In this document: in pieces, positions 3,372-62,877 of the stretch | How positions within the stretch are numbered: position 1 is the first letter of the stretch | Layout of the letters: each line of letters begins with the position of its first letter | Assembly (NCBI GenBank): GCA_035221665.1 | Contig: CM069150.1 | Coordinates: 36,146,001 to 36,210,000 of the forward strand | Source of the DNA: Okamejei kenojei | Lineage: Eukaryota | DNA length: 64,000 nt | Reading direction: 5' to 3' | The notes under the pieces: generated by a model | Seen by the model: only the letters and a program-made list of their open reading frames with translations | The model's database searches: none | Told to the model about the DNA's origin: nothing | Translations under genes and position numbers: made by a program

Positions 3372-3466
3372 AGTCTGAAGAAGGGTCTCGACCCGGAACG
3401 TCACTCATTCCTTCTATCCAGAGATGCTGCCTGTTCTGCTGAGTTAATCCAGCTTTTTGGGTCTAT
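3372..3466 (+). mobile_element. Penelope-derived pLTR mini-insertion with hammerhead-like motif and imperfect TSD
   Basis: CTGAAGAAGGGTCTCGACCCGGAACGTC starts at 3375. Flanks TTACTACTTTTTCAA (3355-3369) and TTACTATTTTTTCAA (3467-3481) differ at one position. Confidence 0.8.
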
Positions 3467-3695
3467 TTACTATTTTTTCAATGCCTTCTTTCATAATTGA
3501 AAATAGAGAGATGAAATAAAAACAATCTAAATTAAAGCACAGCAAATGTTACAGTAAAAGCTTTGCTATTTTTACAACCAAATGTGCAGGAGAGGGCAGC
3601 AAATGGTCTGTATAATCCTGTGGCATTGCTTGGTTACATCATCCCTGCATTATTATCCTCACCTTTTGCCTCTCGCTCACCCATCACCCGTTCAC

Positions 3696-3728
<33 letters not shown>

Positions 3729-3743
3729 ACCCCCCCCCCCCCC
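3696..3743. repeat. poly-C tract (G-quadruplex potential on minus strand)
   Basis: Near-pure C run. Confidence 0.9.
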
Positions 3744-4555
3744 CATTTCAAAGGCCAACACCATTGAATGAATCTCACTCCAAATGAATGAAACTGTATA
3801 GTGTCCTGTCTGAGGCGAAAACCATCAATGTCACCAGATTGTCAACGTGACCACACACCACAGCTGCATTTAATCTCCTCGACCAGTGAAGATCATTGAA
3901 TAGCAATTTACTGTGGGACAAGCGACTGAACCAGTGGCAAGTCACATTTACATCCACTCGAAAGCAACTGCCTCAGCCACAAACTAAGAATCAAATCAGG
4001 TTTGTGCGACTTGGCATCTAAAATTTCCCATCCACTCCTTTGGGGGGAATGTTTATGATTGAAATATAGTGAGGGAATTGTTCCTGCATTTCTGTTGTTG
4101 ATCAAATTAAATGCAGCTTTTCAACTGTGGTCCTTTGACTGAGTTAAATATAATCAGGCAGTGTTGTACCTGAGGAACGGTCTCGACTCGAAACGTCACC
4201 TATTACTTTTCTCCATAACTGCCTGACCTGCTGAGTTACTCCATCTTTTTGCGTCTATCTTCAGTGTAATTTAAAACTGAGATATTTGTGTTTATAAGGA
4301 TAGGAGTATGATAATAATAACCCATTATTATCTTTAATATGTCAATATGCCTCAATTTTCAACTGGTAACTTGCTGACAAATCATTGTCAGACCTTATTA
4401 ATCAAAAGTATTGATCATTTGAAGTGCTTGACCACAATCGATTGTTACACAGTGTTAGACTCATATATCTTAGTATTAACACTTAATTATTAAATTGAGT
4501 AACTGAAGTATAATAAAGCATTGTGTGGAACAAAACAGTTTGGTTTTAAACTTGT

Positions 4556-4860
4556 TGATTTAATTGAACTGCATACTTTAATGTCACGTGCCAAGTCACA
4601 GTAAAATTCTTTGCTTGCGTACCCAAGGGTATGCAAATACTGGCCCATAAAGGGCGCTGGCAAAGTAACAAATCCTCCCCCCCCCCCCCCCCACGCCAGT
4701 TCCCCCATTGTTCTTCGCCCTCCCTCACGGCGGTTCACCGCGCCGGGTCCTCCATTGTTCATCCCCCCCACGGCGCCCCCCCTCGCTGGATCTTCCATTG
4801 TTCATCCCCCCCTCCCCCCCTCACGGCGGTCCCACCACGCCGGGCCCCCTTTATTCCGTC
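4556..4860 (-). mobile_element. Non-autonomous element with Rex1-like 3' tail and internal CCATTGTTC... tandem units
   Basis: Tail shared with 2175-2236 (CAAGTCACAG..AAATTCTTTG.TTGC.TACCCAAGG); repeated CCATTGTTCATCCCCCC units. Confidence 0.5.
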
Positions 4861-5391
4861 AGTAGGTTACTGAATCAGGGTGGATAAGCCTGGTGAAAGC
4901 CTATAAAAATGCCTTGCGTTCACTGCTCTCAAGTGACTTCTGTAATACTCTGTGCTTCATTACTTTTGGAGTGGGGCTTCAGAGAACACCCAGAGTAAAA
5001 CATCCTGACTGTAAAACTGGTTTCAACAAGCTGAGTAATTAACAAAACATGTGGCTGACCCATTTACCAGCTGGTCAAAACATAACAAATCCTGGAAATC
5101 AATGATTACTATTCAATGCATTATATAAATATCGTTATCTGCCCTGCCATTTTTATTGTTGACTTTAGAGCTGCTCTGAGGGTCATATTAAATGAGTTAA
5201 CGGATAATTCACACCATTGAGCAATTACACATTGTTTGAAAAAGTTGAACAGTTGTGACTGGCAATAATTGAAAATACTGAGAAAAAACACGGAAAGGAC
5301 TGCTTGCTCTTAATATATATTCTTAAATTAAATAAACAAAATGTTGTTCTGCAGAATGGTCTCGACCTGAAACATCACCTATTCCTGTTAC

Positions 5392-5657
5392 CATTTAGTT
5401 TATTGTCACGTGTACCGAGGTACAGGGAAAAGCTTTTGCTGCGTGCTATCCAGTCGGCAGAAAGGCAATACATGATTGCAAGCGAGCCATTTACAGTGTA
5501 TATATAGATAAGGGAGTAATATTTAGTCTGAAGCAGGGTCTCGACCCGTAACATCACCTATTCCTTCGCTCCATAGATGCTGCCTCACCCGCTGAGTTTC
5601 TCCAACATTTTTATCTCCCTTTAATATTTAGTGCAAGGTAAAGCCAGCAAAGTCCGA
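5392..5657 (-). mobile_element. Rex1-family 3' end interrupted by a pLTR insertion (5528-5621)
   Basis: Matches the 42424-42590 copy. The insertion is flanked by the 11-bp TSD TAATATTTAGT (5517-5527 / 5622-5632). Confidence 0.75.
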
Positions 5658-7082: not shown

Positions 7083-7093
7083 CACTGTGACCG

Positions 7094-9588: not shown

Positions 9589-9590
9589 TA

Positions 9591-14030: not shown

Positions 14031-17000
14031 TTTTTTTTTTTTTTACTTTAGGTTTTATTGATTTTATGTATACACAAATAAAACACAAATATAACAACAA
14101 AACATATAAAATGACAATGAAACATACAACAGTGTAGCAGTGGGTTCAGTTTACAATTAATGATGCAGTATACAGAACTATTTTCATATTAAAACATTTT
14201 CCAATAACTTACATTATTGTCTATAAAATTATACAGTGTTAATGTCTTTATTTCTATACCTAATCCATTTTTCCCATTTTCTTTTACATTCGTCTTCTTT
14301 CACTCTTAGAGAATATGTCATTTTCTCCATGACAAATATTTCCTGTACTATGTCTAACCATTGTCTAAGTCTGGGTGTGTCCGCTGCAAGCCAGTTTCTT
14401 GTAATGGCCTTTCTGCCAGCTGTGAGTAGGATTTTAACCAAGTAATGGTCTTCCTTCAGCACCACTGTATTTATGTTACCCAGGTATAAAAATGGAACAC
14501 TTCTTGCAGACTATATATCCTAATACCTCCGTTAATTCTGAATTCAGTCTGTCCCAAAATGGTTCTATTTTTGGGCAACTCCAGAAGATATGTGCATGGT
14601 TTCCGTCTGTTTGGCCACATTGCCTCCAGCATGTTTGCTGCCTTAGAATTTGCTTGCTTTTTATGTTAGGCGTAATAAAGAAACAAATCAAATTTTTCCA
14701 ATTAAATTCTCTCCAATGTTGTGAATTGGTGGATGTCTGTAGTGTTACACACATATGATGCCATTCTTCTTCTGAGATTGTAATGTTCAATTCCTTTTCC
14801 CACTTAAATTTTACATAAAATGTAGTTTTAGCTTGACATTCCATTAAACTATGATAAAGTTTAGAAATAATCCTTAATGTTTTTTGATGATACGCACTAT
14901 CACTTCTATCACTGGATTATTTTCTTCTAGTGCCTCCCTTTTTACCTTTTTATTGTAATAATCTCTTAGTTGGAGGTATCTAAACAAGTCTTGGTTCCGA
15001 AGTGCAAATCTATCTATCAAATCTTGAAAACTTCTTTGGTCTCCATTTTCAATAACAGTACAAAATGCAGTCATTCCTTTCTTTATCCACTCTTTAAATG
15101 TTGAGTCACACATCCCTGGTTTAAATTCATTATCCAAAGCTATCCATCTTAAAACTTTTTGGCGTTTATTCAGTTTAAGTTGTCTGGTAAGCGTGAACCA
15201 GGTTTTTAAAGTAAAAATAGTTATTGGATCGATTATGCTCCTGATATGTCCAGGAAGCGCTTTTTCTCCCAAAAGTGTTTGGATGTGGAAGTCAGGGATA
15301 TCTGTCTCAATCTCTTTCCACCTAGCTATATAGCTGTCCTCACACCAATTAATTAGTGGTCGAAGTTGGGCTGCATAGAAATATATCCTAAAATTTGGAA
15401 GTGCCATTCCACCTTTGTCCTTTGGCAACTGTAGTGTAGTGTATTGAATTCTGGCCTTCTTTCCTCCCCAAATAAATCTAGATATTAATTTATCCCATTC
15501 CGTGAATTGTTTTAATGGTACCTCTATTGGCAGAGATTGAAACAAGTACAATAGCCTTGACAAAATATTCATTTTCACCACATTTATCTTACTACTAAAA
15601 TCCATTGGGTAGGTGGACCATCTTTCTATATCCTTTCTTATGTTTTGGTTGATGTGATTATAATTGGCCCCATACAACAGTGATATATTTTTTGTTATAT
15701 GTAACCCTAGGTATTTGATTGATTTTGAATCCCATTTAATATTATAATTTTGTTCGATTTCTTCTGGAGGAGGGACAATTAAATAGGAGGATTTGAGTTT
15801 TTGAAATATTCACTTTATATCCTGCATAAAAATTCAATTTATCTATGATCCCCATCATCCTTGGAAAGGAGGTGTTTACTTCTGTGAGATACATGGAATC
15901 GGTATGGGTAGAGCTACAAAACACTAAGGGGCAGAAAACGCTGGTGGGTGTTGTGTACAGGCCACCTAACAGTAGCAGAGAAGTTGGGGATGGTATCAAA
16001 CAGGAAATTAGAAATGCGTGCGACAAAGGCAAAACAGTTATAATGGGTGACTTCAATCTACATATAGATTGGGTTAATCAAATTGGCAGGGGTGCTGAGG
16101 AAGAGGATTTTTTGGAATGTATGCGGGATAGTTATCTAAATCAACATGTAGAGGAACCAACGAGAGAGCGGGCTATTTTAGACTGGGTTTTGAGTAATGA
16201 GGAAGGGGTAATTAGCCGTCTTGTTGTACGTGCCCCCTTGGGCAAGAGTGACCATAATATGGTTGAGTTCTTCATTAGGATGGAGAGTGACATTGTTAAT
16301 TCAGAAACAATGGTTCTGAACTTAAAGAAAGGTAACTTTGAGGGTATGAGACGTGAATTGGCCAAGATTGACTGGCAATTAATTCTAAAAGGGTTGACGG
16401 TGGATATACAATGGAAGACATTTAAAGACTCAATGGATGAACTACAAAAATTGTTCATCCCAGTTTGGCAAAAGAATAAATCGGGGAAGGTAGTGCATCC
16501 GTGGATAACAAGGGAAATCAGGGATAGTATCAAAGCAAAGGATGATGCGTACAAAGTAGCCAGAAAAAGCAGCATACCAGAGGACTGGGAAAAAATTCAG
16601 AGACCAGCAGAGGAGGACAAAGGGCTTAATTAGGAAAGGAAAAATAGATTATGAAAGAAAACTGGCAGGGAACATAAAAACTGACTGCAAAAGTTTTTAT
16701 AGATATGTGGAAGAGAATGAGGTTAGTAGTAGGTCCCTTGCAGTCAGAAACAGGTGAGTTATCATGGGGAACAAGGATATGGCGGACCAATTGAATAACT
16801 ACTTTGGTTCCGTCTTCACTAAGGAAGACATAAATAATCTGCCTGAAATAGCAGGGGACTGTGGGTCAAAGGAGGAATTGAGTGAAATCCAGGTCAGTCG
16901 GGAAGTGGTGTGGGTAAATTGAATAGAATAAAGCCGATAAATCCCAGGGCCAGATAGGCTGCATCCAGAGTACTTAAGGAAGTAGCTCAGGAAATAGTGG

Positions 17001-20312: not shown

Positions 20313-20736
20313 AAGGTAAATATTGGAATAGGAATCTCTTTCGTTATATCCCATGCCCACTCTGACACATAATCTCCATAAATTTCCAGAAGATGGGCAG
20401 AAAATGTTACCGGTCCTTCAAACCTGCCCCACACTTATTAAATCCAAAGCATCTGGCCGGTATTTGTTACCCCAAAGGCCCTAATCTCACTTCATTCTGC
20501 AGCCAAACAATTTCTTGAATCTCCTGGGAGAAGCATAAATCGCAATCAATAAGAGGGAAAAAAATCTGGGAAATTCTTCCTTCAGGCAATTAAAACAGCA
20601 TTTTCAATTTAAGGATGAAAAGAATATATTGACTTAGCAAGAACACCTGCTCTCTGCTTCTTTCACAGACCTCTCTGTTTAAGTAGCAATGGGCTACAAT
20701 TACTGTCAGCATTGCTGGAGGAAAGAACAGACAGGT

Positions 20737-21248
20737 CCCTTTCTCCTGACTCTCAGTCTGAAGAAGGGTCTTGACCCAAAACGTCACCTATTCCATTTCT
20801 CCAGAGATGTTGTCTGACCCTTTGAGTTACTCCGTAGCATTTCGTGTCTATCTTCAGTTTAAACCAGCATCTGCAGTTACATCCTACACAGTTTGTCTGC
20901 TCCACTGCAAAATCTCCTCAAGGTATGCCTACTTTGAAGAAGTTCTCCTCGTCTGACGAGGGTTCTGCAACATTCTGTCTTGCTGCTCCCCCCCCCCCCC
21001 CCCCCCCCCCATCCCCCCCCCTGTGATTTCTTCTGTTCTCCGACTCCAAGCATTCATTTGTTCAATATCTCTCTATATCACCGGCTATACTCTTGTATCC
21101 ATTTCCCCTGAATCTTAGTCTGAAGAAGGGTCTTGACCTGAAACGCCACCTTACCTTTTTTTCCGGAGATACTGACTGACACTGAGTTCCTCCAGCGCTT
21201 TGTGTCTATCTTCGGTTTTAACCAGTGTCTGCATTTCCTTCCTACACA
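20737..21248 (+). mobile_element. Penelope-derived element with two direct pLTRs (hammerhead-like motifs at 20758 and 21120)
   Basis: Two direct copies of the pLTR. The intervening segment is shared with 29258-29314 and 29460-29500. Confidence 0.75.
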
Positions 21249-24706: not shown

Positions 24707-24900
24707 GTGTAGGAAAGAGCGGCAAATGCTGGTTTAAATCGAAGGTAGACACAAAATGCTGGAGTAACTCTGGAATGACTGGCAGCATCTCTGGAGAGAA
24801 GGAATGGGTGATGTTTCGGGTCGAGACCCTTCTGTCACCCATTCCTTCTCTCCAGAGATGCTGCCTGTTCCGCTGAGTTACTCCAGCATTTTGTGTCTAT
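24707..24900. mobile_element. Inverted pair of Penelope-derived pLTRs
   Basis: Minus copy 24707-24833 abuts plus copy 24834-24900; imperfect flanking duplication CATCAAGGTATCTGT / CATCAGGTTATCTGT. Confidence 0.8.
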
Positions 24901-25420: not shown

Positions 25421-25657
25421 TGTGCAGGAAGGAACTGCAGATGCTGGTTTCGACCGAAGATGGACACAAAAAGCTGAAATAACTCAGCGGGACAGGCAGC
25501 ATCTCTGGAGAGAAGGAATGGGAGATGTTTCGAGTTGAAACCCTTCTTCAGACTGAAGTCTGAAGCAAGGTCTCGACCCGAAACGTCACCCATTCCTTCT
25601 CTCCAGAGATGCTGCCTGTCCTGCTGAGTTACTCCTGCTTTTTGAGTCTATCTTCGG
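25421..25657. mobile_element. Inverted pair of Penelope-derived pLTRs
   Basis: ...CCCTTCTTCAGACT-GA-AGTCTGAAGCAAGGTCTCGACCCGAAACGTC...: two copies joined head-to-head at the hammerhead end. Confidence 0.85.
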
Positions 25658-27184: not shown

Positions 27185-27247
27185 AGTCAGTAAAGTTTAA
27201 ACTCATTTTACCCAGACCTTGCTATGGAGCAACTAATATAAATCCAA

Positions 27248-27413
27248 GGAATGGATGATGTTTTGGGTCGAGATTTGTTTCTTGTCTGAAGGAGCGCCTC
27301 GACCCGAAACGTCACCCTTTCCTTCTCTCCAGAGATGCTGCCTGTCTTTCTGCGTTACTCCAGCATTTTGTGTCTACCTTTGGTTTAAACCAGCATATGC
27401 AGTTCCTTCCTAC
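27248..27413 (+). mobile_element. pLTR mini-insertion with short inverted 5' piece
   Basis: 10-bp TSD ATAAATCCAA (27238-27247 / 27414-27423). Confidence 0.8.
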
Positions 27414-28360
27414 ATAAATCCAATTTGAGTTTAGTTAACCAGGCTAATGCTCTTTGTGAAAGGGAATACATCTCCGCAATGTAACCATTAAATCTGTGAA
27501 GACAGCAGGGTGTAGTTATGTTGTCCCTGTATTGATCTGGCTTGTAACAACCACAAAGCATAGAGGCCCTAATACACCATTAGTGCATTAGGGCAAGTAG
27601 AAAGGCCATGGATCTGATTTAGCACCTTTCATGCTTTCTACAGAAGGTCTAAACAGGAAGATAGGGTACAATCAGATGTTTAGTCCCGGGGTAGCTTCAT
27701 TCCATGCTTTAATCCAACCTGCTGTACTATCATGCCATACAAGATAGTAAGGGAATCAAGAGTAATAAGGTTAGTATAAGGACGTGGTGGTCAGGTGGCC
27801 TATTCTTGTAGACTTACCTTGGAACTTACCAATATGATCGTATAGCGTTGCATTTAGATAAGTGTCCGTAGGTCCAGGGGAGTATGAGTCAAAGGCAGTA
27901 AACATACTTCAGTGGATTGGAGTTGAATAAATTTTAAAAACCTGGTTAAATGTAGAATGGCAAGCTCAAAAATAAGCATGGAGATGCATCGCAAATGAAA
28001 GTCTGAGGAAGGGTCCCGACCCGAGGCATCACCCATTCCGTCCTTCCAGGGATGTTGCCTGTCCCGCTGAGTTATTCCAGCATTTTGTGTCTACCGTCAC
28101 AAATGAAATGCACGTTGTCAGTGAGTATTTGTAAAAGGAGAGGACAGCTTGCTAACTGGAAATAGAAAGCCGAAAGATAACATCAGGCTCTTTATGGCTT
28201 GAAAAGTGAGGAAAAGAAACGGCAGAGACTCCAGTTACTGAAGCTAATAAATTGACTGAGATGGTTACTCATTCTGAGGCAGTCAGATTTTGCTATGGGA
28301 AATATTATTACTTCATGAAATGTGGCTTTTTACACTAAAATGCAATATCAAATAGTTATT

Positions 28361-28487
28361 GTGTTAACGAAGAAACTGCAGATGCTGGAGAATCCTGAAG
28401 AAGGGTCTCGACCCGAAATGTCGCCTATCTCCTTCGCTCCTTAGATGCTGCTGCACCCGCTGAGTTTCTCCAGCATTTTGTGTAACC
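28361..28487 (+). mobile_element. pLTR mini-insertion with intact hammerhead core and 14-bp TSD
   Basis: CTGAAGAAGGGTCTCGACCCGAAATGTC at ~28395; TSD ATCAAATAGTTATT (28347-28360 / 28488-28501). Confidence 0.85.
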
Positions 28488-28913
28488 ATCAAATAGTTAT
28501 TACTCAGCATGAAAGATTTTTGTTTTCTCTTCCCACATATGCAGCCTGACCTACAGAGTATTTCTAGCCTTTTCTGCTTTATTTTAAATTTCCAGCAATG
28601 GCAAGGTTCAAGTGCGTTTTATTGTCATTTGTCCCGAAATGGAACAATGAAATTCTTACTTGCAGCAGCACAATAGATATGTAAACATGGAACTCTGTAA
28701 ATCCCATAATAAACAACAACATAAATTCAGCAAATATAAAAAAACAAACATACAAAAATTTGATTAATTTTCATGATCGATCTTGTTGGGCATAAATTGA
28801 GGCATGAAACAGCCATTGATTTCTGTGACAGGCCTAGTACTCAAAGTCAGGCCTAGCCCTCTCCTCATCCAATGCCCACTAAAGGCTGCGGGAAGAGGGC
28901 ACTTGGGGCCGGT

Positions 28914-29107: not shown

Positions 29108-29607
29108 TGTGTAGGAAGGAACTGCAGGTGCTGGATTACACCAAAGATAGACACAAAATGCTGGAGTAACTAAGTGGGCCAGGCAGCATGTCTGAAGAGA
29201 AGGAATAGGTGATGTTCTAGGTCAAGACCCTTCTTCAGATCTTCTTCAGTTCCTTCCTACACAATTTGTCCTCTCCACTGTGAAATCTCCTCAAGGTCTG
29301 CCAATGAAGAAGTTTAAAGAGGTTATGGGGAGAAGGCTGGAGAATAGGGTTAGGATGGAGAGATAGATCGGCCATGATTTAATGGCGTAGGCTTGATGGG
29401 CCGTATGGCCTAATTCTGCTCCTATTCCTCATGACCTTATAACACCCTCTCTCGCTGCACCCCTTCTGTGATCCCTCATGCTCTCCAGCTCTACAACCAC
29501 GTTTTAACCCAGTCTGAATAAGGGTCTCGACCCGAAACGTCACCTACTCCTTTTCTCCAGAGATGCTGCCTGACCCTCTGAGATACTCCAGCACTTTGTG
29601 TCTATAC
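29108..29607. mobile_element. Penelope-derived composite (inverted pLTR, internal segment, direct pLTR) with nested CR1 tail at 29316-29440
   Basis: Internal segment homologous to 20888-21050; hammerhead-like motif at ~29514. Confidence 0.7.
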
Positions 29608-38754: not shown

Positions 38755-39070
38755 GGTGATATAGTGGTGCAGCTGGAGCATTGCTGCCTTACAGCACTAG
38801 AGACCCGAGTTCGATCTGATTGTCCGTACGGAGTTTGTACGTTCTTCCCGTGACCTGCGTGGGTTTTCTTCGAGATCTTCAGTTTCCTCCCACACTCCAA
38901 AGAAGTACAGGTTTGTAAGTTAATTGGCTTGGTATCATTGTAAATTGTCCCTAGTGTGTGTAGGATAATGTTAGTGTGCGGGGATCGCTGGTCGGTGCGG
39001 ACTCGGAGGGCTGAAGAGTCTGTATCTGCGATGTATCTCTATACTAAACTAAACTAAACCAAAGTAAACT
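38755..39070 (+). mobile_element. HE1-like V-SINE
   Basis: Head, V-domain and (CTAAA)n tail. Confidence 0.85.
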
Positions 39071-39524: not shown

Positions 39525-40413
39525 AGGGCCTGTCCCACTTCGCGATTTATTTTGGCGACTGCAGAGCGTCAGTGACTGACGCCCCTAAAACCGCCAAGTT
39601 GCACGACATACATTTTTTTTAAAGAAGGAACTGCAGATACTGGAGAATCGAGGGTACACAAAAAGCTGAAGAAACTCAGCGGGTGCAGCAGCATCTAAGG
39701 AGCGAAGGAGATAGGCGACGTTTCGGGTCGAGATCCTTCTTCAGACTTACACGCTGACGTATGCTGTCAGGGTCAGGGTTGGGGTTGGGGTTAGGGACCA
39801 CAGATGGGCTGTAAAATATTCTTCCTTCAATGCATAGATTTTAAACACTAATATATTAGAATTAATACAATAAAATCAATTGTGCAAATGAAAAGATGTC
39901 TGAGTCGTTCAGTTTTATTTATAGATGTATTGGTCCGCTTCCAGATCAAATCTCCGTCTCTACAACTTTTCACAGGGATGGATTCAGTGAGAGTAGACTG
40001 AACTCCCCTCTCCACTCCTCCCTACTCCCGCCCCCATCCCTCCTTCTCCACTCGCCTCCTACCTTTCTCTTCCTCCCTTCTTCCCCCTTCTTCCTTCGCC
40101 CCTCTTCCTCCCTTCTGCCCGCTCCACTCTTCTCCCCCTTCTCCACTCCCCCCTAACCCTAACCCTAACGGGGCATCACCCACAAGGATAGCATGCGTCA
40201 GTGTGTGACAGGGCGCGCGACATGATGAGACACCTAAATGTCGCGCCTGGATTTTGAACATTCCAAAATCCTGGGGCGACAGGGAGACACCGCGCGTCAC
40301 CTACACGTCACCGCGCGTCACTATATGTGTCACCACGCGTCACGCCCCGACCACGAAGCGACAACCTCTTTCCAGGCTGTCGCCGAAAATGTCGCCAAAG
40401 TGGGTCAGGCCCT
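39525..40413. mobile_element. PIF/Harbinger-type MITE with nested pLTR (39621-39747)
   Basis: 16-bp TIRs AGGGCCTGTCCCACTT / AAGTGGGTCAGGCCCT (1 mismatch); TTA TSD at 39522-39524 / 40414-40416. Confidence 0.85.
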
Positions 40414-43779: not shown

Positions 43780-44100
43780 GGCATGGTGGCGCAGTGGCAG
43801 AGATGATGCCTCACAATGCTTGCAGCGCCAGAGACCCGGGTTCGATTCCGTCTAAGGGTGCTGTCTGTACGGAGTTTGTTCATTCTCCCCGTGACCACGT
43901 GGGTTTTCTCCGAGATCTTCAGTTTCCTCCCACACTCCAAAGATGTACAGGTATGCGGGTAAATTGGCTTGGTAAATGTAAAAAAATGTCCCTAGTGTGT
44001 GCAGGAGAGTGTTAATGTGCGTGGGTCGCTGGTCAGCACAGACTCGATGGGCCGAAGGGCCTGTTTCCGCACTGTATCTCTAAACTAAACTAAACTAAAC
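43780..44100 (+). mobile_element. HE1-like V-SINE with intact Pol III boxes
   Basis: A-box TGGCGCAGTGG at 43787-43797; B-box GGTTCGATTCC at 43839-43849; (CTAAA)n tail. Confidence 0.9.
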
Positions 44101-46551: not shown

Positions 46552-48015
46552 TCCAGCACTAAATAATGTATTTATGTACATAATAAATGTTCTCATTTGT
46601 TTGTTTAATGACCAACAATGAAAAAAAGAATATGCCAGTGATAATCAACTTGCCTGAGGAAGGATGGAGAGATTGTTCAGGGTGAAAGTAGCTGTAAAAA
46701 TAGATTCGCTGGATTTGAAGAGGTAACATGAATGTTTTAACATAGGGAAAAAAAACCTCTGATAAACCTGTATGAAACCCAACAAAAATCTATTGAGTAT
46801 TATAATATTAAATGGACCCAGAATTTTAGCTGCCCGTTAACTCTTGAGTTTCAATGGCATTTGCAATTAAATTGGATAGCTATTGTCCCATCTTTCCTAT
46901 CTGGATCCTTTTAGTGCTTTTATAAACTAGGTGATTTATCGGAAACATCTAATGTAAGTAGGTTTATGATAGAAATTATTTTATATGTGAACTTCAAACA
47001 ACTTCACAATGTCAAGCACAGTTAATATTAGGTTAAAAGTTCCACCAATGTTCTGTTGGTATTAGGTTTCCAGACTAAACACGCAAGTGTATTTTGCGAC
47101 CGGTGCTAATATAGCAAATGTAAGTTCAGTGTAATAATTTATCATGTTATATTGTCTCAAGCTCTTTCAGCTGGGCAGAATGAAGATGCATTCTCAGCTG
47201 TTAAAGATGCATCTACATAGACAGGAGAAATAGATATGGGATTTTTACATGTGATTTCCTACAGTCATATCGCCTAGTAATGCTTGTGGAGAAACGTACA
47301 GCAGTAATAGTTGAGTGGAGAGATTTTCAAATACCTTTTGCAATTGTTGAATTATATGTCATGAATCAAAGCTTGGTGGAGAGGAAGAGTAAGAAAAAAT
47401 CTAAATGGTGACAATAAACAAAAGACAAAAAAATCTCAAGCAGGCCATTTGTCGAGTTGAAAATCCTAATGACCAGAAGCAACGACTTTTATAATGTGAT
47501 TTAGTTCATAAAATCTATCTCCATCGGATGTTTTAACTGTAACCCAGATTTCTGATGTATTAATTTTTAATATTTCCTCAGGTTTTGCACTATTGTGTGA
47601 GAGTAGCCACAGGGTGATGGACAATGGGAGCTTATTGTTGGAATTTGCTTTCATGCAATTTTTGTTCACTTCCAAGAAAAGAGCGGGAACAAATATTTAA
47701 TCTCAGAATCTTAATAAATCTGTTAATGATGCACAGAGTCTTGTGCATATATATAAACAGATGTGTTAAGAAATTATATTAAATTTGATATAAGCCTTTT
47801 AACACATCTGTGCTTATTTATTCCATCTCATAAAAGCAGATATGTTCACTCTGTTTATTAAGTTAAAATATCTGACCTTTGTATAGATCAGTTCAGGTGA
47901 ATTATGTCCACAGGTCTTTTGCAGCAGATATTATGCAAGGTTGATGCTGGTTGATCTGTCATTTTCACACCTCACCCTTCCATATATCTACACTCCCTCT
48001 CCCCTGACTCTCAGT

Positions 48016-48043
48016 CTGAAGAAGGGTCTCGACCCGAAACGTC
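48016..48043 (+). ncRNA. Minimal type I hammerhead-ribozyme motif in a Penelope pLTR (consensus-like copy; host repeat ~47955-48110)
   Basis: CUGAAGA (48016-22), helix II GGGUC/GACCC, GAAA (48036-39), short helix III, GUC triplet with predicted cleavage after 48043. Helix I is only ~2 bp, so activity is unproven. Confidence 0.6.
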
Positions 48044-48263
48044 ACCCATTCATTCTCTCCAGAGATGCTGCCCATCCTGCTGAGTTACTCCAGCATTTTG
48101 TGTCTATCCTCGATATTATTCCAGTAATTTGATGGTCCTATTGTCAATGTTATAGTCATTGAGAGAATAGTTACAGTTATAGTTATAGGTATAATTAATG
48201 TGGTAGTTATAGAGAGAAATCCAGTGCAATTTCAACTCGAACATTTTGGATTGAAGATAAGAT

Positions 48264-49525: not shown

Positions 49526-49737
49526 GTGTAGGAAGGAACTGGCGATGCTGGTTTAAACCGAAGATAGACGCAAATAGCTGGAGTAACGCAGCGGGACAGA
49601 TGGACAGAAGGAGTGGTTGACGTTTCGGGTCGAGACCCTTGTGTGATGAAGGGTCTCGACCCGGAACGTCACCCATTCCTTCTCTCCAGAGATGCTGCCT
49701 GTCCCGCTGAGTTACTCCAGCTTTTTGTGTCTAACTT
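49526..49737. mobile_element. Inverted pLTR pair
   Basis: Flanking duplication TTTGTGCTTG; head-to-head copies meet at GACCCT-TGTGTGATGA-AGGGTC. Confidence 0.8.
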
Positions 49738-50599
49738 CTTTGTGCTTGCTGGGAAGAAAGCCATACACAAATAATAGATGGCAACGGCTATTGAGAAATA
49801 TCTCTTTACAGCATTGCCAACAAGGGTCTTGTTCAAAGTCTCAAAATCCTTGCTGTCAGTGTCCATTTTGACATACAGGTTGATCGCAGGACATGCATCT
49901 GTTGTGAGAAAATGTCACAGACAATAGACAACCTTCTAAGCACAGTTTGTTAACTTTTATCTGAGTGGCTAAAACAACTTCTGCAGCATCCTGGCTGTCC
50001 ACAAAGGGAGTTTCTCCTAGCCTAGAGCTTCCTTGAGGAAATAGAAGAAATGAGATGAGTTGAGCCTCACAGGCGAGAGACCTGGACTTAATCCTGTCCT
50101 CGGGTGCTATCTGTGTGGCGTTTCATCTTGGTGTTCCAGTTCCCTCCCACATCCCACAGACATGAGGGTTCCTAGGTTAATTAGCTTCTGTAAATTGCCC
50201 CTAGTGTGTAGGATGTGGATCAGAAGATGGGATAACATAGAACTAGAGTGAATGGGTGATCGATGGTTGGCACGGACTCAATGGGCTAAAAGAGACATGC
50301 TGTATCTCTAAACTGAACAAATTCGTATGAGGCGAGGCTGTGTCTTATCATCCAGAGCTTTAGCATATTTTTCTCATAGAAACGTTTTGCAATGATGAGT
50401 TTGGATTACTGATTGATTCAATGATGAGCTTTTTCAAAAGCAGGTGATTTCAGAGCAACCATTCAAGCATCTCTTCAAAACTATGGTGGCGTTGCTCATC
50501 TGAGAAAAGGGCATTTCTAAAACTCTGGGGCAGAGGATACAGGTACTGGAGAACAGGGGCAGGATGGCCATCTTGAAAATCTTGAAAATATACGTTCAT

Positions 50600-55342: not shown

Positions 55343-55945
55343 TTAAGGAAACTTCAAGGAGATTTTATGTACATTAAGGGAAAGAAGGTAATTAGAGAGA
55401 GAATGGGCTCCTTCAGAAACCAAAGAGGTCATCTCTGTGTGGAGCCACAAGAGGTGGCCAAGGTCCTCCATGAGTATTTCTCCTCTGTTTTTACCGGAAA
55501 GAAAGAGCTGAAGACTGGGGAACATGGGACAGTAAATGGAGAGGTCTTGAGGACAGCCCGTATTACGGACAAGAAGGTGCTGGATGCCCTCTTACCAATT
55601 GGGTAGAATTATTAGAAGAAGTAATCAAAAAGGTTGATGAGGATAAAGACATAAACATTGTCTATATGGCCGTAAGCACGGCATTTGATGAGGTTCTGCA
55701 TGGTAGGCCTCTCTGGAATGTTAGATTGCATTCTCTAGCCGACTGGATAGAGAAATGGTTTCATGGAAGGAAACAACAGGTGATTGAGGAAGGCTGTTTT
55801 TCAGACTGGAGGCCCCGTGACAAGTGGTGTGCTTCAGTACTGTGCTCATTGCTGTTTGTGGCCAACGATTTGGATGAGAGTGTAGAAGACATGATTAGTA
55901 AATTTGCAGATGACAGTAAAGTCGATAATACTATAGATAGCCAAT
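55343..55945 (+). mobile_element. Degenerate CR1 RT fragment
   Basis: LHEYFSSVFT, AFDEVLHG, ISKFADDSKV. Confidence 0.8.
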
Positions 55946-55973
55946 AGATAGCCAATCTATCAGAGATAGAGTG

Positions 55974-56510
55974 ATCTCTCAGTTGCCAAACATTTTAACT
56001 CCCTTTCCCATTCCCATGCTGACCTTTCTGGCCTGGGCCTCCTCCACTGTCAGAGTGAGGCCAAATGCAAATAGGAGGAACAGCACCTCACATTTCGCTT
56101 GGGCATCTTGCAGCCCAGTGGTATGAACATTGATTTCTCTAACTTCAAGTAACCCTCGCATTCCCTGTCTCTCCGTCCCTCCCCCACCCTTGTCACCGTA
56201 CTAGTTTCACTGTCGTCCTGCTGAGTTTCACTGTTGTCTAGGTCGTTATCACGAAGAATAGAGCCAACAATGGACTATTGTGGGCTGCACTTTTTCTTGA
56301 TCATTGTTACTTTTTACATATCTTTCATTCATATATCTCTCCATATCACGGTCTATATCTCTCGGTCCCCTTTCCCCTGACTCTGAGGCTGATCAAGGGT
56401 CTCGACCCGAAACGTCACCCATTCCTTTACTCCAGAGATGCTGCCTGACTCTCTGAGTTACTCCAGCATTTTGTGTCTATCTTTAGGATGAACCAACATC
56501 TGCAGTTCCT
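55974..56510 (+). mobile_element. Penelope-like element 3' end (EN C-terminus, 3' UTR, pLTR)
   Basis: VAKHFNS...DLSGLGL...EEQHLTFRLG...PSGMNIDFSNFK* ends at 56152; hammerhead-like motif at ~56389. Confidence 0.85.
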
Positions 56511-57606
56511 TTTATAGGAAGGTTTATAGGATGCTGGTTTATACCGAAGATAGACACATAATGACGGAGTATCTCAGTGGGACAGGCAGCATGGGTGACA
56601 TTTTGGGTTGAGACCCATCTTCAGACTGAGAGGGATTCTTCAATCTGCAGTTCCTTCCTACAGATAAAGTCTATACCTCAATGTTTCATTGGTTTCAAAG
56701 CTATTTTTACACAACACAAGGTTACGAAAGGCATTGAATAATTCTATAGGAATTATTTGAGTTCAATGCCATGTATGGAGACTAGTTGGTTATTTTCCAT
56801 TGTCTTTACTCATATGTTCAGAAGTGCAGTCACTTGCTATGTACAAGGCATGCTTTGAATGCATATTGGCAGTAGTATCTTCCTCCTTCCTATCTCCATT
56901 CTGACTTGAGTAGATGCATTTTGTGGATTCAAACAACAAGCAACTGTGAGATCAATCTGAGAAAATATGCTAATCGCAAAGTAAATGTATTTATGAGAAA
57001 ATAAATAAGCCACAAATGTTTGAAAGATAATTGAAATGCTATCTTGCATCATTTTATCAGCACAACGATTTCATAAACAGGAAATCATTGTCATGTTAAA
57101 TATATTAACTCCTTTGATAATGTCAGAAGAGGACATTATTTTTTTTCAAATTCAGCCTGTCTTATGCATATTTTGTGTGGTTAAAAGATGTGTTAGCCGA
57201 TTACAATGGCTGCTCTGCCTGTGCCTTGCACTCAAATTACCAATCTTGTCATACAAAGGGCAGGTGTACACAAACACACATCATTGCAGTTAATATGCAC
57301 AGTGTTTGTTTTCAGTCTCCATTCTTAATGACAGATTTTCTTCATCTCCCTCTCCATCAAGTGACAAAGGTTAGCACCAGAAATTGGAGTGTAATGCTAT
57401 CTGTGTGTGAGAGGCAAAGTGTTGGCACTTCTTGGCCTATCTGCACCTGCCCTCTTTGACATGTTCTCTCGCATAAATATAACAGCTTACAAACTATTAG
57501 GAACCCAATTATTAAAATCTGAAGATATTCCTGAGCCAAAACATCACGTATACACATCAAATCAGTCTCAAGAAGGGACATAGAAGAGTATAGCCAGAAA
57601 CCCGCA

Positions 57607-57866
57607 TTTGATCCTGACTACGGGTGCTGTCTGTGTGGAGTTTGTATGTTCTCCCCGTGACCCGCGTGGGTTTTCATCAAGATCTTCGGTTTCCTTCCAC
57701 ACGCCAAAGACAATCAAGTTTTTTATGTTAATTGGCTTGATAACAGAAAATGTAAATTGTCCCTGGTGGAGGATAGTGTTAATCTGTGGGGTTCACTGGT
57801 CGGTGCAGACTCAGTGGGCTGAAGAGCCTGATTCCACGCTGGATCTCTAAACTAAACTAAACTGAA
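57607..57866 (+). mobile_element. HE1-like SINE
   Basis: V-domain and tail. Confidence 0.8.
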
Positions 57867-58930
57867 CTATTGCGCAAGAATAAGCCCTTCAGCCCGTAAT
57901 GTCTGTGCCAAAGCCTATCCCCACTGCCTGCAGGTGATCTACACCCCTCCATTCCACGCATATCCAATCCCATCAAAACATCCATGTCCTTCAGAGATGC
58001 AGCCTGATCCGCTGAGTTATTCCAGCATTATTACTGCATTCATTACAGTACCTCCTGCAGTCTGAAGCACAAGCAGTGACATTAAAAGCGCCGCTACAGA
58101 TAATGTTCGTCACTGAATATAAAGTTGCATTTTCCAGGATTTCATATGTCAAGATAAAAAGGAGCTCCAAACAAAATTGCTCTTATCGTGAATTCCTCTT
58201 GTTCATTGTTAGTCAGGCAGGAAGTGTCCAATACAGTCAAAACCATCCCTGTGGAAATCTGATGTAAGCAAATTCCTGACAGTTGAAGTAAACCTTTCTC
58301 CAGCTTTAGCTTTGTATCTAAAAAGGCAGTCAACCGCTGGGACCTTCTTATGAGCTTCTGTTTAAAGCAACTTTTGTGCCGACCCGTAACCATTGTATAT
58401 AATTCACCCCCACTTCTCTCTCCACTTCCTGCTCTCTTTCACTCTGTCATTTATAGTGGGAAGTGGCAATAATGTAAATGCGGCTCCTGTAAGATTATCA
58501 TTCATCTACTTCACACGGTGATTTCCCCTGCAATGGGAGTTTGCTCTCTCTCTCTAGAGCTGCAGCACATATTGCATCAAAAGTACAGTAAAATGCAGCA
58601 TCCAAAAGAGGAAAGGTTAAATATTAACATTTTAAAACTCGATGCCAACAAAGTCAGCAAACTTGCAACTCATTTCTCAGGAATTTGTCGCTACAGTATT
58701 TTACAGGATTTGATCGATGAATATAAAGCCATTTAGCCTCGGAAGGTTAAGTGATGTGAGTTCATTAGTGAACTGGACACAAAAAAATCTAGACAAACTG
58801 CAAATGCAAGAATCTTGAGCAAAACACACAAAGTCATGGAATGACTCAATGGGTCGGGCACCACCTCTGGAGGGAATGGAGAGGCGATATTTCGGCTCAG
58901 GACCCCTCCTCAGCCTGAGGTTCAGTGTGG

Positions 58931-59245
58931 CAGAGGGTCACCTGCACCTCCTCCAACCTCATCTATTGTATCCGCTGCCCTAGATGACAGCTGCTCTACA
59001 TCGGTGAGACCAAGCGTAGGCTTGGCGATCGCTTCTCCCAACACCTCCGCTCGGTTCGCAATAACCAACCTGATCTCCCGGTGGCTCAGCACTTCAACTC
59101 CCCCTCCCATTCCAAATCCAACCTTTCTGTCCTGGGCCTCCTCCAGAGTGAGGACCACCGTAAATTGGAGGAGCAACACCTCATATTTTGCTTGGGCAAT
59201 TTACACCCCAGTGGTATGAACATTGACTTCTCTAATTTCAGGTAG
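58931..59245 (+). pseudogene. GIY-YIG endonuclease domain remnant of a Penelope-like retroelement (one in-frame stop)
   Basis: Manual translation: QRVTCTSSNLIYCIRCPR*QLLYIGETKRRLGDRFSQHLRSV...PVAQHFN...RKLEEQHLIFCLG...GMNIDFSNFR*. Followed by a 3' UTR and pLTR (59332-59428). Not in the ORF track because it lacks a start codon. Confidence 0.9.
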
Positions 59246-60564
59246 TCCCTACTTTCTCCTCCCCTCTGAGCTCTCCCTCAGCCCACTGGCTCCACCTCTT
59301 CCTTTCTTCTTCCCGCCCCCCCACCCTCACATCAGTCTGAAGAAGGGTTTCGACACAAAACGCTGCCTATTTCCTTCGCTCCATAGATGCTGCCTCACCC
59401 GCTGAGTTTATCCAGCATTTTTGTCTACTCCCGATCTGAAATGTGTCTTTCCATTCCCTCCTCGTATGCTGCCTGCCCCGCTGAGTGTACTCCAGCACTT
59501 TGTATTTTGCTACACAAACTATGCTCAGTGGTCTGGTCTCGGCCTGATAAGCAGATAAAAGACTGAGGGCTGCCGAGAACAAAGGGGGATCCAGCGGCAG
59601 GTGGTACCTGCTGCTTCTTACATTAAATCTGAGCCCATATTTCAGTTTGGGCTCGACCCGAAACGTCACCCATTCCATCTCTCCAGAGATGCTGCCTGTC
59701 CCGCTGAGTTTCTCCAGCTTTTTGTGTCTATCTTCAGAATATATGTTCAGAAGGGTTAATGAGTCTAATAGACTGTGCAATGTAAAAAAATATGCAGCGT
59801 TAATGACAGGTCTCATGATCTACTTTACTGATATTAGTTCAGGTCTCTTGCACTGTCTAATTCAATAAATTCTGCAAGCAAGTCTCCCTATGATCTCATT
59901 ATTACTGACTTAAATGATCTTAAAACAACCTCTGCAAACAGTAGGTGGTTAAAGTTAATGTTAATTCTTTACAACCGTCTGAAATTTGTATTGTGAATTT
60001 CTGGCATCAACATTATGATTTCTCATTGAAGCATTTAACTACCAGCCAACAGACAATGTTTGCGTTTAATTGCTGCCTTCCGTAAGGCGGGCCTTTGCTG
60101 TAAGGAAAGAGTCTAGAGCAGAGGCCTGGTTGTAAAATGTTGGATTAGATACTTTCACTGCAAGTTGTTGATGGTGTAGTTTCTGAACATGGAATTAATA
60201 AAGGTCCAATTATTTTAATTCTGACACAACAAGTTATTAGTGTCTGTAAACATGTGTTAATTGGGTAGAACATTGCTTGCCAACGGTGGCTTTGTTTAAA
60301 GATCTGCAGAACAAAAGGCCTGAACCCCCAACAGCTTAAACAAATTCAATATTTACCACCTCAGCTGAATCTCTCTCATACTTTTACACAAATGAAACAA
60401 TCAGTTAATTAATAGTTAATTTACAACAAATGCTTTACAAACCTCTCCTGTTAATTCCACAGTCTTGTGATTGTATTGTATTGTATTTATGGATCAGTGT
60501 TTTGTGAGGCATCCATTCTGATTTCAGCAAAAGAATAGTCACATACAGTACACCATGGACTAGT

Positions 60565-60890
60565 AGATAGACACAAAATGCTGGAGTCACTCAGCGGGAC
60601 AGGCAGCATCTCTGGAGAGATGGAATGGGTGGCGTTTCAGTTCAAGACCCTTCTTCAGACTGAGAGTCAGGAGAGAGGGAAACTAGTGATATGGAAGGGT
60701 AAACTGTGAACATTTACTCTTCCATATCTCTACGTCTCCCTCTCCCCTGAGTCTCAGTCTGAAGAAGGGTCTCGACCCAAAACATCATCTATTCCTTCTC
60801 TCCAGAGTTGCAGCCCGTCCCGCTGAGTTACTCCAACATTTTGTGTCCATCTTCAGTGTAAACCAGCATCTGCTGTTCCTTCCTACACAT
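60565..60890. mobile_element. Palindromic pLTR pair inserted as one unit
   Basis: Perfect 11-bp TSD CATGGACTAGT (60554-60564 / 60891-60901); arms are mutually inverted. Confidence 0.9.
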
Positions 60891-61809
60891 CATGGACTAG
60901 TGTTCAGGCCTTCTTCCCTGTCAGACCTTCCAAGAGTCAAGAGTGTTTTATTGCCATATAAGTCCCAGACAGAACAATGAAATTCTTACTTGTAGCATCA
61001 CAACAGAATATAGTATAGTACCTTGTAAACAATATAATAAATTAAAGAAAAAGTTCAGTATGTATATATACTGTATTGTAGGATAGTGTTAGTGGAGGGG
61101 CATCGCCGGTCAGCCAGGTGTCAGTGGGCCGAAGGGCCTGTTTCCACACTGTATCCCTAAGAGATGTAATTAAAACTAAGAACTAAAACTAGATGGCCAG
61201 TGACAAATAACTCTTCCTCTGATTAATCTTATGCTGAGGGCAAGGCTGATAAGAACACCACTAACTGCATGAGGAGATTTCTGGACATGAATTTAACATT
61301 CCATGTGCAGATAATCCATTGCAGCATTTAAAGACAATAATTCATATGATTGCAAAGATGTTTTGTCTATCTTATTAGCATGGTTTCAAAACACTGGATA
61401 TCTCCAAAGGCATTTCTGAATTTTTATTAAGTAATGTATAGAGTGTTCATTTCCAATCTATGAAATTCAGATGGAAAGCCAGCAGGCTCATCTGCAAGGG
61501 AACTTATTGAAATATTACAAAATTGTTGTTACAGGCCTTTTGAGATCATGATTTTTATGTCCACATTGGAAGAAAACACATACACAATAGATTATGTAAG
61601 CAACATGCCATGTCAGGAAATGTCTTACTGTGACCGATGGTCCCGAACCAAATCGCCACCTCTCCATGTTCTCCAGCAATGCTTTCTGAAGAGGGGATTC
61701 CACCCAAAACATCACCCATTAATTTTCTCCAGAGATGTTGCCTGACCCGTTGAGTTACTCCAGCGTTTTGTGTTTTATTTTGTGTAAAATTGTTCAAGGG
61801 AAGCGCAGC

Positions 61810-62121
61810 TGGGGCAACAAAGTGTGGCAGCAGGCAGAGTTGCTGCCTCATGGCACCAGAGACCCATGTTCGATGCTGACCTCAGGCACCATCTGTGTGT
61901 GGAGTTTGCACGATCCCCCTGTGAACGTGTGGGTTTTCTCCGAGTTTCCTCCCACATACCAAACACATGCAGGTTTATAGGTTAATTGTTCTCTGTAAAT
62001 TGCCTCCAGTGTGCAGGGAGTGTATGAGAAGATGGGATAACATGGAATGAGTATGAATGGGTGATCCATTGGACTGAGTGGCCCAAAGGGCCTGTTTCCA
62101 TGCTGTATCTCTCAAACTAAA
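61810..62121 (+). mobile_element. HE1-like V-SINE (older subfamily)
   Basis: Head and tail match; body similar to 50060-50315. Confidence 0.75.
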
Positions 62122-62403
62122 CGAAAAACAAAATAATTCCAGCATCTGTAGTTCCTTGTATCCATATTAAATTAACGGATTTGTCATATATTAGAATACA
62201 TTATGAACTCACCTTCTGAATTAATAAATCTGAAGAGAAGCCACTTGGGATCAAATGTTTAATTGTAAAGACAATGATGAATTACAGCTCTGACAGCAGG
62301 AATTAATTCCAAACCTTTTGTCAGATACAAGCAACATTCTCATACTAATTCATGTTACAGATCAATGCTGCTGTTAACCCAGTTATTTAATTTGGAGTTT
62401 CTT

Positions 62404-62687
62404 GTGGAAACAGGGCCGTTCGGCCTATCGAGTCCGTGGCAACCAGCGATTCCCGCACACTTGCACTGTCCTACACACAAGAGGGGCTATTTACAATTTT
62501 ATTAAAGCCAATTAACCTACAAACCTGTACGTCTTCGGAGTGTGGGAGGCAACCGGGACGCCCGGAGAAAACCCATGCAGGTCCGGGGAGAACGTACAAA
62601 CTCCATACAGATAGGAACAGTAGTCAAGATCGAACCCGGGTCTCTGGCGCTGTTAGGGTGCAACTGAACTCTACCACTGCGCCACCA
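62404..62687 (-). mobile_element. HE1-like V-SINE
   Basis: A/B boxes and V-domain. Confidence 0.85.
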
Positions 62688-62747
62688 ATATTTCCCAATA
62701 AAGATCATCCTAAAGGTGCCTCAAAGAAGGGCATTCATTTATATGTG

Positions 62748-62877
62748 TTAAAGAAGGAACTGCAGATGCTGGAAAATCGAGGGTACACAAAATGCTGGAG
62801 AAACTTAGCGGGTGCAGCAGCATCTATGGAGCGAAGGAGATAGGCAACGTTTTGGGCTGAAACCCTTCTTCAGACCC
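62748..62877 (-). mobile_element. pLTR mini-insertion
   Basis: 10-bp TSD TTTATATGTG (62738-62747 / 62878-62887); hammerhead-like motif on the minus strand. Confidence 0.8.

Follow-up and report, generated by a model that had tools for sequence, protein, structure and literature searches.

Dozens of short repeats in a 64,000-nucleotide stretch of the Okamejei kenojei genome (GCA_035221665.1, contig CM069150.1, forward-strand positions 36,146,001 to 36,210,000; hereafter the window, numbered from its first letter) carry a hammerhead ribozyme motif, and many of them begin just in front of it. The question is whether these pieces, derived from the pseudo-LTRs (pLTRs) of Penelope-like elements (PLEs), form a mobile family of their own or are products of a complete element, and what sets their shared 5′ end.

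A dense repeat family with a minimal hammerhead motif

A profile built from 16 window copies recovered 67 pieces (6,051 bp, 9.5% of the window) between positions 1833 and 62878, on both strands and from several subfamilies of Neptune-type PLEs, and none in the reversed window; 63 pieces were recovered when the search was run jointly with more sequence. Each piece consists of the motif and ∼65 bp, with or without a tail of ∼35 bp. Profile search of 111 random 10-kb stretches returned 441 pieces, from which we extrapolate to ∼1 million pieces genome-wide, with the short pieces (stubs) making up ∼4% of the sampled DNA. Density in the window is ∼2.5 times the average. An exact search for the 28-base motif gave 48,215 occurrences in the genome (G000) and not one in the reversed control. 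A 54-bp tandem derivative of the family also exists.

All 16 motif positions of the original prediction (14 on the plus and 2 on the minus strand) carry the motif, although two were placed one base off (the C of CUGA lies at 60759, listed as 60758, and at 39744, listed as 39745). The four listed TSDs are exact (5517/5622, 11 bp; 27238/27414, 10 bp; 28347/28488, 14 bp; 62738/62878, 10 bp). Many of the listed copies do start at the motif, but four extend upstream of it: the copy at 59337 by at least 400 bp into GIY-YIG coding DNA, that at 56389 by ∼376 bp into an ORF end, that at 48016 (no tail; 47962..48111, plus strand) by 53 bp and that at 60759 by 43 bp.

The motif is intact at 48016..48043 (plus strand), where the sequence reads as CUGAAGA, an extra A, helix II (GGGU/ACCC) with a CUCG loop, GAAA and palindromic ACGU, with predicted cleavage after GUC (48043) and a helix I of just 2 bp. 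The first reading of it as a hammerhead of the minimal type I class, in which helix III is the palindrome ACGU, stands, but its helix II with a 2-nt TC loop does not: such a loop cannot form in RNA, so helix II must be read as 4 bp with a 4-nt loop. The core (CUGAnGA...GAAA...UH), the extra base after A9, the G10.1-C11.1 pair and palindromic positions 15.2-16.2 are all present. Helix I is confined to U2.1-R1.1 and G2.2-C1.2, with A against C at the next position, short of the ∼4-5 bp usual for minimal type I hammerheads of PLEs. Such hammerheads were described from metazoan pLTRs by Cervera and de la Pena (2014, PMC4209133) and share with the skate motif the CUGAnGA core, the extra base before G10.1, the G10.1-C11.1 pair, palindromic 15.2-16.2 without loop 3 and the location in the pLTR. 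Most are likewise single dispersed copies, tied in that paper to truncated PLEs, with some opposite-strand pairs. Neither the presence of hammerhead motifs in Penelope pLTRs nor their spread through truncated copies is new. The skate differs in having a helix II of 4 bp and a helix I of 2 bp, compared with 7-8 and 4-5 bp in Schistosoma families, and a copy number ∼100 times the largest vertebrate counts given there (4,000 and 9,000, obtained by a different method). In the sections considered, that paper gives no 5′-end analysis.

Over 31 columns the majority sequences of five subfamilies are the same, and many columns beyond these are variable. Most individual copies have decayed, as foreseen, and CpG sites are the most affected (G12 is retained in 77%, 11.1 in 76% and 16.2 in 66%, versus 91-96% at non-CpG core positions); of 165 copies, 66 keep the core and 37 keep the core, helix II and the 15.2-16.2 pair. 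Comparison with Rfam, proposed as a check, gave no hammerhead match at E ≤ 1; weak matches to miRNA families and C4 fell mostly on fold-back pairs, all under gathering scores. Hammerhead-like folds lie far from the predicted minimum in the monomer (−4 versus −9.5 to −10.1 kcal/mol) and in the dimer (−12.7 versus −26.6 to −28.3 kcal/mol), and a consensus fold of 15 copies showed almost no covariation. Selection probably acts on the hammerhead in source elements, and in stubs it decays as a passenger.

An autonomous element as the source of the repeats

Intact frames of 1,197 codons lie between pLTRs at two loci outside the window (L071 and L073). The L073 ORF (1185 aa) combines a reverse transcriptase (RT) with YIDD and a GIY-YIG-type C-terminal end, the single-ORF organization of EN+ PLEs; its Pfam matches (RVT_1, E = 5 × 10−6; GIY-YIG, E = 0.004) are both below the curated cut-offs, and it has 985 relatives at E ≤ 0.001. 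The L073 pLTRs (898 bp, 99.8% identical) are arranged as pseudo-LTRs, with the tail running into the ORF start and the hammerhead ∼160 bases before the start codon, and upstream pLTRs of varying length occur at 23 of 30 ORF-start loci. Between RT and EN, CNRKKCNTC corresponds to a Zn-finger-like CX2-5CxxC linker, a motif common to Neptune and Nematis (PMC8557442), and the element probably belongs to the Neptune clade, a placement made from motifs and not from a tree. Of 24 sets of assembled contigs, mostly presumed RNA, the four that were aligned cover the pLTR and ORF start, in a form from which transcription start, strand and level cannot be read.

Window pieces match the pLTR of these intact pLTR-ORF-pLTR elements, which confirms their Penelope origin, and the pLTR sequence continues upstream into EN and RT as a truncation ladder; all 25 loci found with the 3′ UTR of the older subfamily show ORF homology. 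Two window copies on the plus strand keep 3′ ORF DNA. One (55970..56515, motif at 56389) holds the last ∼59 ORF codons, 3′ UTR and pLTR; the other (58826..59428, motif at 59337) holds the GIY-YIG domain (58925-59239; 82% identical to the intact ORF, with one stop), 3′ UTR and pLTR, plus an inverted arm (58826-58937). Two further copies keep leader/ORF-start DNA exclusive to the autonomous RNA: one begins at −20, takes in the tail and continues through leader sequence to the ORF start, at ∼+190 (20736..20953, plus strand), and one is a complex insertion (29109..29605) of a tailed minus arm, leader/ORF-start DNA (29231-29314 and 29446-29515, with an unrelated insert between) and a motif copy from about −5/−7, which probably arose when synthesis jumped templates, from the 5′ edge to the ORF start.

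Stubs and long copies appear to form one lineage. In the youngest subfamily, to which this comparison was confined, 64 stubs and 73 long copies share the consensus and main 3′ variants, and no recurrent stub-only change was found in 48 bases; two variants lean toward stubs (T/AA, 14/64 versus 7/73; C/AA, 3 versus 0). No tandem array of the pLTR unit appeared among 27 TRF rows of the window, where pieces are dispersed monomers or head-to-head pairs. Animal non-LTR retrozymes (10.64898/2026.07.22.740005; PMC7229834) are similarly short, non-coding, pLTR-derived and equipped with a type I hammerhead; unlike the skate copies, they form tandem arrays in which every unit has a hammerhead, and the skate stubs show no lineage of their own. 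The original prediction had the pLTR alone behaving as a SINE-like or retrozyme-like family, mobilized in trans by a GIY-YIG Penelope partner. Intact ORFs supply the partner, but because intact copies exist, two window copies carry endonuclease DNA and no stub-only lineage was seen in the youngest subfamily, neither the separate family nor its mobilization in trans is supported. Judged from sequence, the repeats are 3′ ends of autonomous Neptune-type PLEs, to which short pLTR transcripts may contribute in trans.

Ends of the insertions

For end counts the C of CUGA was set as position 0, and 33 of 504 profile matches without a BLAST alignment and copies short of +70 were left out. As predicted, 5′ ends accumulate at the motif. 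Among random copies that reach it, 141 of 193 stop at −9..0, as do 22 of 31 at risk in the window and 48 of 100 exact-motif copies, which then lose 0/52 in the next 10 bases. Loss in the neighboring 10-base bins is 6-13%, and over +1..+9 it is 20%. Stopping at this place was seen in each subfamily group (16/22, 26/41, 10/18) and in the youngest subfamily, for which a full-length reference is available (25/51, then 0/26 in each of the next two 10-base bins). Individual ends smear over about −7..0 instead of one base, and TSDs adjoin them in 30/110, compared with 3/325 when shuffled. At the other side, 3′ ends cluster at ∼+93 and ∼+128. Examples in the window are a plus-strand stub from AGT (−3), without a tail and with a 15-bp TSD with one mismatch (3372..3468); another from −3 inside the TSD at 5517/5622 (5517..5632, plus); a tailed stub that starts at −2 and carries a short inverted remnant (27238..27423, plus); and, in the young subfamily, a stub starting at 0 and bearing a short inverted remnant of the tail (28347..28501, plus) and tailed minus-strand stubs from −3 (39617..39747) and −2 (62738..62887).

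No pile-up was found at the cleavage site (+28), with 26/303 copies ending in +20..+29 and 20/323 in +30..+39. Full-length copies, recognized by an ORF start, do not stop at −9..0 of their upstream pLTR (0/23); one of 24 stops at +2 (P = 9 × 10−6 versus stubs of the same subfamily). Stubs have a fixed 5′ end and TSDs of their own, and that end may be a transcription start. An extra G at the 5′ end, counted as a test for a cap, gave no clear sign of one: it occurred in 34 of the first 100 matches (P = 0.07) and 55/100 of a second set, where, at 30 loci looked at closely, the excess was due in part to microhomology and point changes. Although a leader model would favor tails in stubs, they were not clearly commoner there than in long copies (8/14 versus 6/24, P = 0.08; 10/24 versus 16/46, P = 0.61; 39/96 versus 11/40). 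A polypyrimidine-like tract ending in CAG upstream suggested a spliced leader. This cannot account for the pile-up, since TSDs adjoin the motif with no common exon between. A literature search returned no entry on a fixed 5′ stop before a PLE hammerhead or on the skate family.

Head-to-head pairs, absent from the original prediction, number 11 in the window, and 80 were counted against 4 tail-to-tail pairs in all. Exactly one arm is tailed in 53/63 pairs (P = 8 × 10−9), and a single TSD surrounds the whole pair in 27/63, versus 1/184. Each such pair is one event that leaves a tailed arm and an untailed one, showing the inverted 5′ copy and one-sided 30-40 bp tail of EN+ PLEs. In the window they include 24707..24900 (tailed arm +4 to +129, untailed arm +24 to +91), 25426..25656 (arms from −4 and −3, one tailed and one untailed), 49526..49741 (+6 to +129 and −2 to +98, within one 13-bp TSD with one mismatch) and 60565..60888 (both arms past the motif, at −51 and −43, within one 15-bp TSD with one mismatch). 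Among 42 pairs with both arms reaching 0, in a set that mixes random and motif-selected loci and contains a few pairs joining different subfamilies, both arms stop in 27, both pass in 9 and the fates are mixed in 6 (P ≤ 8 × 10−5). The fates of the arms are therefore correlated, which counts against a chance fall-off striking each arm independently.

Origin of the stubs

We think it probable that the stubs are dead-end by-products of autonomous Neptune-type PLE reverse transcription that starts within the element's own uncut leader RNA. The RT-endonuclease would start reverse transcription inside the leader and run off the RNA 5′ end just before the hammerhead motif, leaving a stub. A parallel is the Poseidon element PAc from the green anole (Frangieh et al. 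2024, PMC11167929), in which RT starts at two internal sites bounding the tail, both strands are cut and extended, RNA 3′ of the start sites is needed and the RNA used is uncut. In both elements the tail lies between two fixed 3′ ends, ∼90-130 bases past the hammerhead; by analogy, the two skate 3′ ends would be two internal start sites, with a protein dimer priming one from each side of the cut. PAc differs in its clade and in a hammerhead that overlaps the start codon, and no fixed 5′ stop is described for it in the sections considered. The shared fate of paired arms and the lack of a stop in full-length copies suggest two classes of template: RNA beginning at CAGU before the motif, probably the transcription start, would yield stubs, and a leader preceded by the rest of the unit, whether by read-through of a tandem, by template jumping or in a circle made by the hammerhead, would yield long copies. 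Penelope of D. virilis, whose transcripts start 46 bases before a 75-base intron ending at helix I (PMC2377424, PMC4209133) and not at the motif, counts against this explanation.

It is less likely that the stop, still in cis, is a property of the ribonucleoprotein, with RT falling off or RNA being trimmed at the edge of a protein-bound hammerhead/tail domain within the first ∼100-130 bases of synthesis. The gradual climb in loss across the motif before the cliff, the smear of 5′ ends and the restriction of the stop to the first pass would all fit, as would the minimum-energy fold of the L073 leader, which pairs −7..+9 with the tail end in a domain that approximates the stub boundaries, and the need of the PAc hammerhead for protein to cleave (PMC11167929). 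That fold, however, is no stabler than shuffles (z = −0.22) and differs from the consensus fold, and the correlation of paired arms is not what chance fall-off should give.

Rather more doubtful is that solo pLTR stubs are transcribed from an internal promoter of their own and copied in trans, in the manner of SINEs or retrozymes. A fixed 5′ end, TSDs and ∼1 million pieces are what such a family would show, and YCAGTC at the stub 5′ end is initiator-like. The lack of a young stub-only lineage and the dispersal of copies weigh against it, and more than half of the stubs are without the tail that nearly every pair needs. A single odd fold-back junction shared by two loci 56 kb apart with different flanks would suit copying of stubs, but it was found twice only in 2.76 Gb, where the unmodified form occurs 34 times. 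The D. virilis promoter is internal (PMC2377424), rotifer pLTRs mobilize other DNA in trans (PMC3846280) and one preprint makes the case that tandem retrozymes derive from PLEs and are non-autonomous (10.64898/2026.07.22.740005); by analogy with PAc, however, the protein binding site would lie 3′ of the start sites and be lost in stubs.

That 5′ truncation is simply random, and the pile-up produced by alignment or by missing upstream references, is very improbable: sequences upstream of CAGT do vary between subfamilies, and each upstream reference is one copy, partly decayed, but the adjoining TSDs and the persistence of the stop in the youngest subfamily largely refute it. Self-cleavage as the maker of the 5′ ends of copied RNA has least to commend it, despite a motif invariant across five subfamily majorities, and is refuted as the main source because it would set ends at +28, where few lie, and remove the core.

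A bolder and tentative version holds that stubs are strong-stop cDNAs of a capped linear-mRNA leader and that all long copies come from hammerhead-cleaved, ligated unit-length circular RNA; we regard it as unlikely. If true, the hammerhead would convert an mRNA capable of stubs only into a circle giving full-length and more-than-unit copies, which would explain both pseudo-LTR regeneration and why PLEs keep the ribozyme.

The skate family departs from the Neptune EN+ PLEs of Craig et al. (2021, PMC8557442) in that most insertions are 90-140 bp long with a fixed stop. Because stubs resemble SINEs or MITEs and occupy so much of the sampled DNA, they matter for annotation. The contribution of this family is a natural record of insertion ends on a very large scale. 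Pseudo-LTR regeneration and the role of the hammerhead are open questions for PLEs (PMC2377424; PMC8557442), and the first-pass stop and the correlated fates of paired arms, in a genome that also has young intact ORFs, make both directly testable.

Extent of the family and its parent element

A profile HMM built from 16 window copies recovered 67 pieces, which together occupy 6,051 bp, and had no hits when the window was reversed. All motif positions of the original prediction carried the motif (two were one base off), and its four target-site duplications (TSDs) were exact at 11, 10, 14 and 10 bp. Comparison with Rfam hammerhead models, also proposed there, gave no hammerhead match in the window. 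The genome (2.76 Gb) holds 48,215 exact copies of the 28-base motif (reversed control: 0), and 441 pieces were found across 111 random 10-kb stretches, from which we extrapolate a genome-wide total of roughly 1.1 million; family pieces made up 4.3% of the DNA in the first 71 of these stretches, and piece density in the window was ∼2.5 times the genome average. Two copies of a separate short repeat on the minus strand (∼38820-38910 and ∼43860-43950) matched a loose hammerhead pattern, were unrelated to the pseudo-LTR (pLTR) family, and are probably a SINE. LINE-type RT/endonuclease frame fragments, of several clades by eye, were also seen at 739-1353, 14476-16633, 18646-19473, 37177-37653 and 55474-55947, as was a minus-strand frame at 23510-23884 whose cysteine-rich motif is reminiscent of the zinc finger at the N terminus of hAT-type transposases.

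Many genomic copies formed a 5′-truncation ladder, sharing 269, 317, 408, 690, 1000 or >1460 bases upstream of the motif, and translation of the long upstream sequences gave a YIDD-containing RT, the linker CNRKKCNTC and an endonuclease of GIY-YIG type. Of eight loci retrieved in search of long frames, two (L071 and L073) have an uninterrupted 1197-codon frame flanked by two pLTRs. The L073 pLTRs (898 bp) are 99.8% identical, and the upstream one runs via the tail to the start codon, ∼160 bases past the motif. Pfam matches of the ORF to RVT_1 and GIY-YIG were both under curated cut-offs, and its closest named relative was an uncharacterised shark protein (69% identity). The L073 ORF (3314-6868) has a proline-rich low-complexity stretch of ∼280 residues between the N-terminal domain and RT, bringing it to 1185 aa, while most relatives among those listed have 750-950 aa. 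RT/GIY-YIG ORFs are likewise joined to the older subfamily, the predominant one in the window, with ORF homology at 25/25 loci fetched by its 3′ UTR. Within the window, the copy with its motif at 59337 retains the GIY-YIG domain (58925-59239), that at 56389 retains the ORF end, and both the copy at 20758 and a complex insertion at 29109-29605 contain leader and ORF-start DNA. In its described features the Okamejei element matches Neptune-type endonuclease-bearing Penelope-like elements (PLEs; PMC8557442): both have the linker motif, form partial tandems and inverted 5′ copies, and carry a tail on one side.

Ends of copies and head-to-head pairs

Position 0 of a copy is the C of CUGA, which is C3 of the hammerhead; predicted cleavage then lies between +27 and +28. 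The 3′ ends were concentrated at +89 to +98 (85/233) and +125 to +131 (74/233); a similar two-site pattern in the green anole Poseidon PLE (PAc) is produced by RT start at two internal sites (PMC11167929). Loss of 5′ ends was scored per 10-base bin among 376 random copies reaching +70. Between +49 and +10 each bin lost 6 to 13%, rising to 48/241 in +1 to +9; the three bins beyond −9 lost 6/52, 5/46 and 4/41. The predicted accumulation of 5′ ends at the motif was confirmed, 141/193 random copies and 22/31 window copies ending in −9 to 0, and the ends are not random. This pile-up was present in every subfamily group, whether or not the copy had an inverted partner. A set made up of the first 100 copies with the exact motif on one contig, which is unable to show ends downstream of 0, had 48 ends in −9 to 0 and 0/52 in −19 to −10. 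A TSD adjoined the −9 to 0 end in 30/110 stubs (short pLTR pieces ending just 5′ of the motif) versus 3/325 shuffled pairings.

Head-to-head pairs outnumbered tail-to-tail pairs by 80 to 4 in the random sample and window together (11 head-to-head in the window). Exactly one tail was found in 53/63 complete pairs, and a single TSD enclosed the pair in 27/63 versus 1/184 controls. Head-to-head pairs are single events. By analogy with PAc, which extends both strands and is a predicted dimer (PMC11167929), the two RT start sites are probably both employed in such an event, each at a different side of the cut.

Origin of the stubs

The best-supported mechanism is one of leader start and run-off. 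The protein would bind the leader of its own RNA and cut the target on both strands, and RT would begin at +93 and/or +128 and run off the RNA 5′ end at about −7 to 0. This putative RNA start coincides with a conserved CAGU, which resembles an initiator. Tails were not significantly enriched in stubs. In D. virilis Penelope, the start lies further upstream (PMC2377424). Long copies, which pass upstream of the motif, would require template RNA that carries the remainder of the unit ahead of the leader; that arrangement could arise by tandem read-through, by jumping to the 3′ pLTR or, as PMC4209133 proposes, in a hammerhead-made circle.

The main rival to run-off is that RT falls off at the edge of a protein-bound RNA domain. 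Both arms reached 0 in 42 pairs (a mix of random and selected loci), of which 27 had both arms stopping in −9 to 0, 9 had both passing and 6 were mixed, and this shared fate suggests that the stop is decided by the template rather than by chance. Among 30 copies bearing the ORF start (L073 and L071 included), 6 ended before +9, one at +2 and none in −9 to 0, while 23 extended 61 to >1300 bases into the previous unit; therefore, the motif is no general block to RT. There was no 5′-end pile-up at the predicted cleavage site (26/303 in +20 to +29), and the stub templates were therefore uncut RNA.

The original view of the pLTR alone as a SINE-like or retrozyme-like family was not supported in the youngest subfamily, the one compared in this way. 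Its 64 stubs and 73 long copies had only scattered changes in a 48-base core, and the main 3′ variants were common to both classes, with two variants leaning to stubs. By analogy with PAc, the binding site of the protein would be located past the RT start sites, in the 3′ direction, and be missing from stubs. Two fold-back insertions 56 kb apart on one contig (L295 and L296, at ∼834.6 and ∼890.1 kb) have different flanks and the same odd junction, a variant occurring twice genome-wide (unmodified form: 34), possibly through rare local re-mobilisation or gene conversion. At three other loci on that contig (L267, L279 and L284), one identical fold-back stub sits within a different dispersed repeat whose ends are inverted; this host is probably a DNA transposon of non-autonomous type, so that the stub spreads as a passenger. 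A 54-bp minisatellite derived from the pLTR part 3′ of the cleavage site, without the hammerhead, lies within the first 2.2 Mb of the contig (L272, L294, L303 and L314); it had 779 genome-wide matches, the first 100 listed all being on the plus strand near the contig start.

The hammerhead motif and earlier work on the element class

Majority sequences of all five subfamily groups were identical over 31 columns (−3 to +27, three CpG sites included), while many columns 3′ of the cleavage site vary between them, which points to selection on the hammerhead motif in source elements. Inserted copies decay quickest at CpG; the core was intact in 66/165 copies, and the core, helix II and the 15.2-16.2 pair together in 37/165. 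Helix I is only 2 bp, and the predicted hammerhead fold lies well above minimum energy in both monomer and dimer. Cervera and de la Pena described minimal hammerheads of the same anatomy, the majority of them single elements with a probable relation to truncated PLEs (PMC4209133). The PAc motif cleaves only in the presence of protein and is dispensable for insertion in vitro (PMC11167929).

The element class was already known, as were its hammerhead motif, its tail and the occurrence of pLTRs alone or as inverted copies; paper searches turned up no account of a fixed 5′ stop ahead of the hammerhead. The family is real and very abundant, and it carries a useful mechanistic signature.
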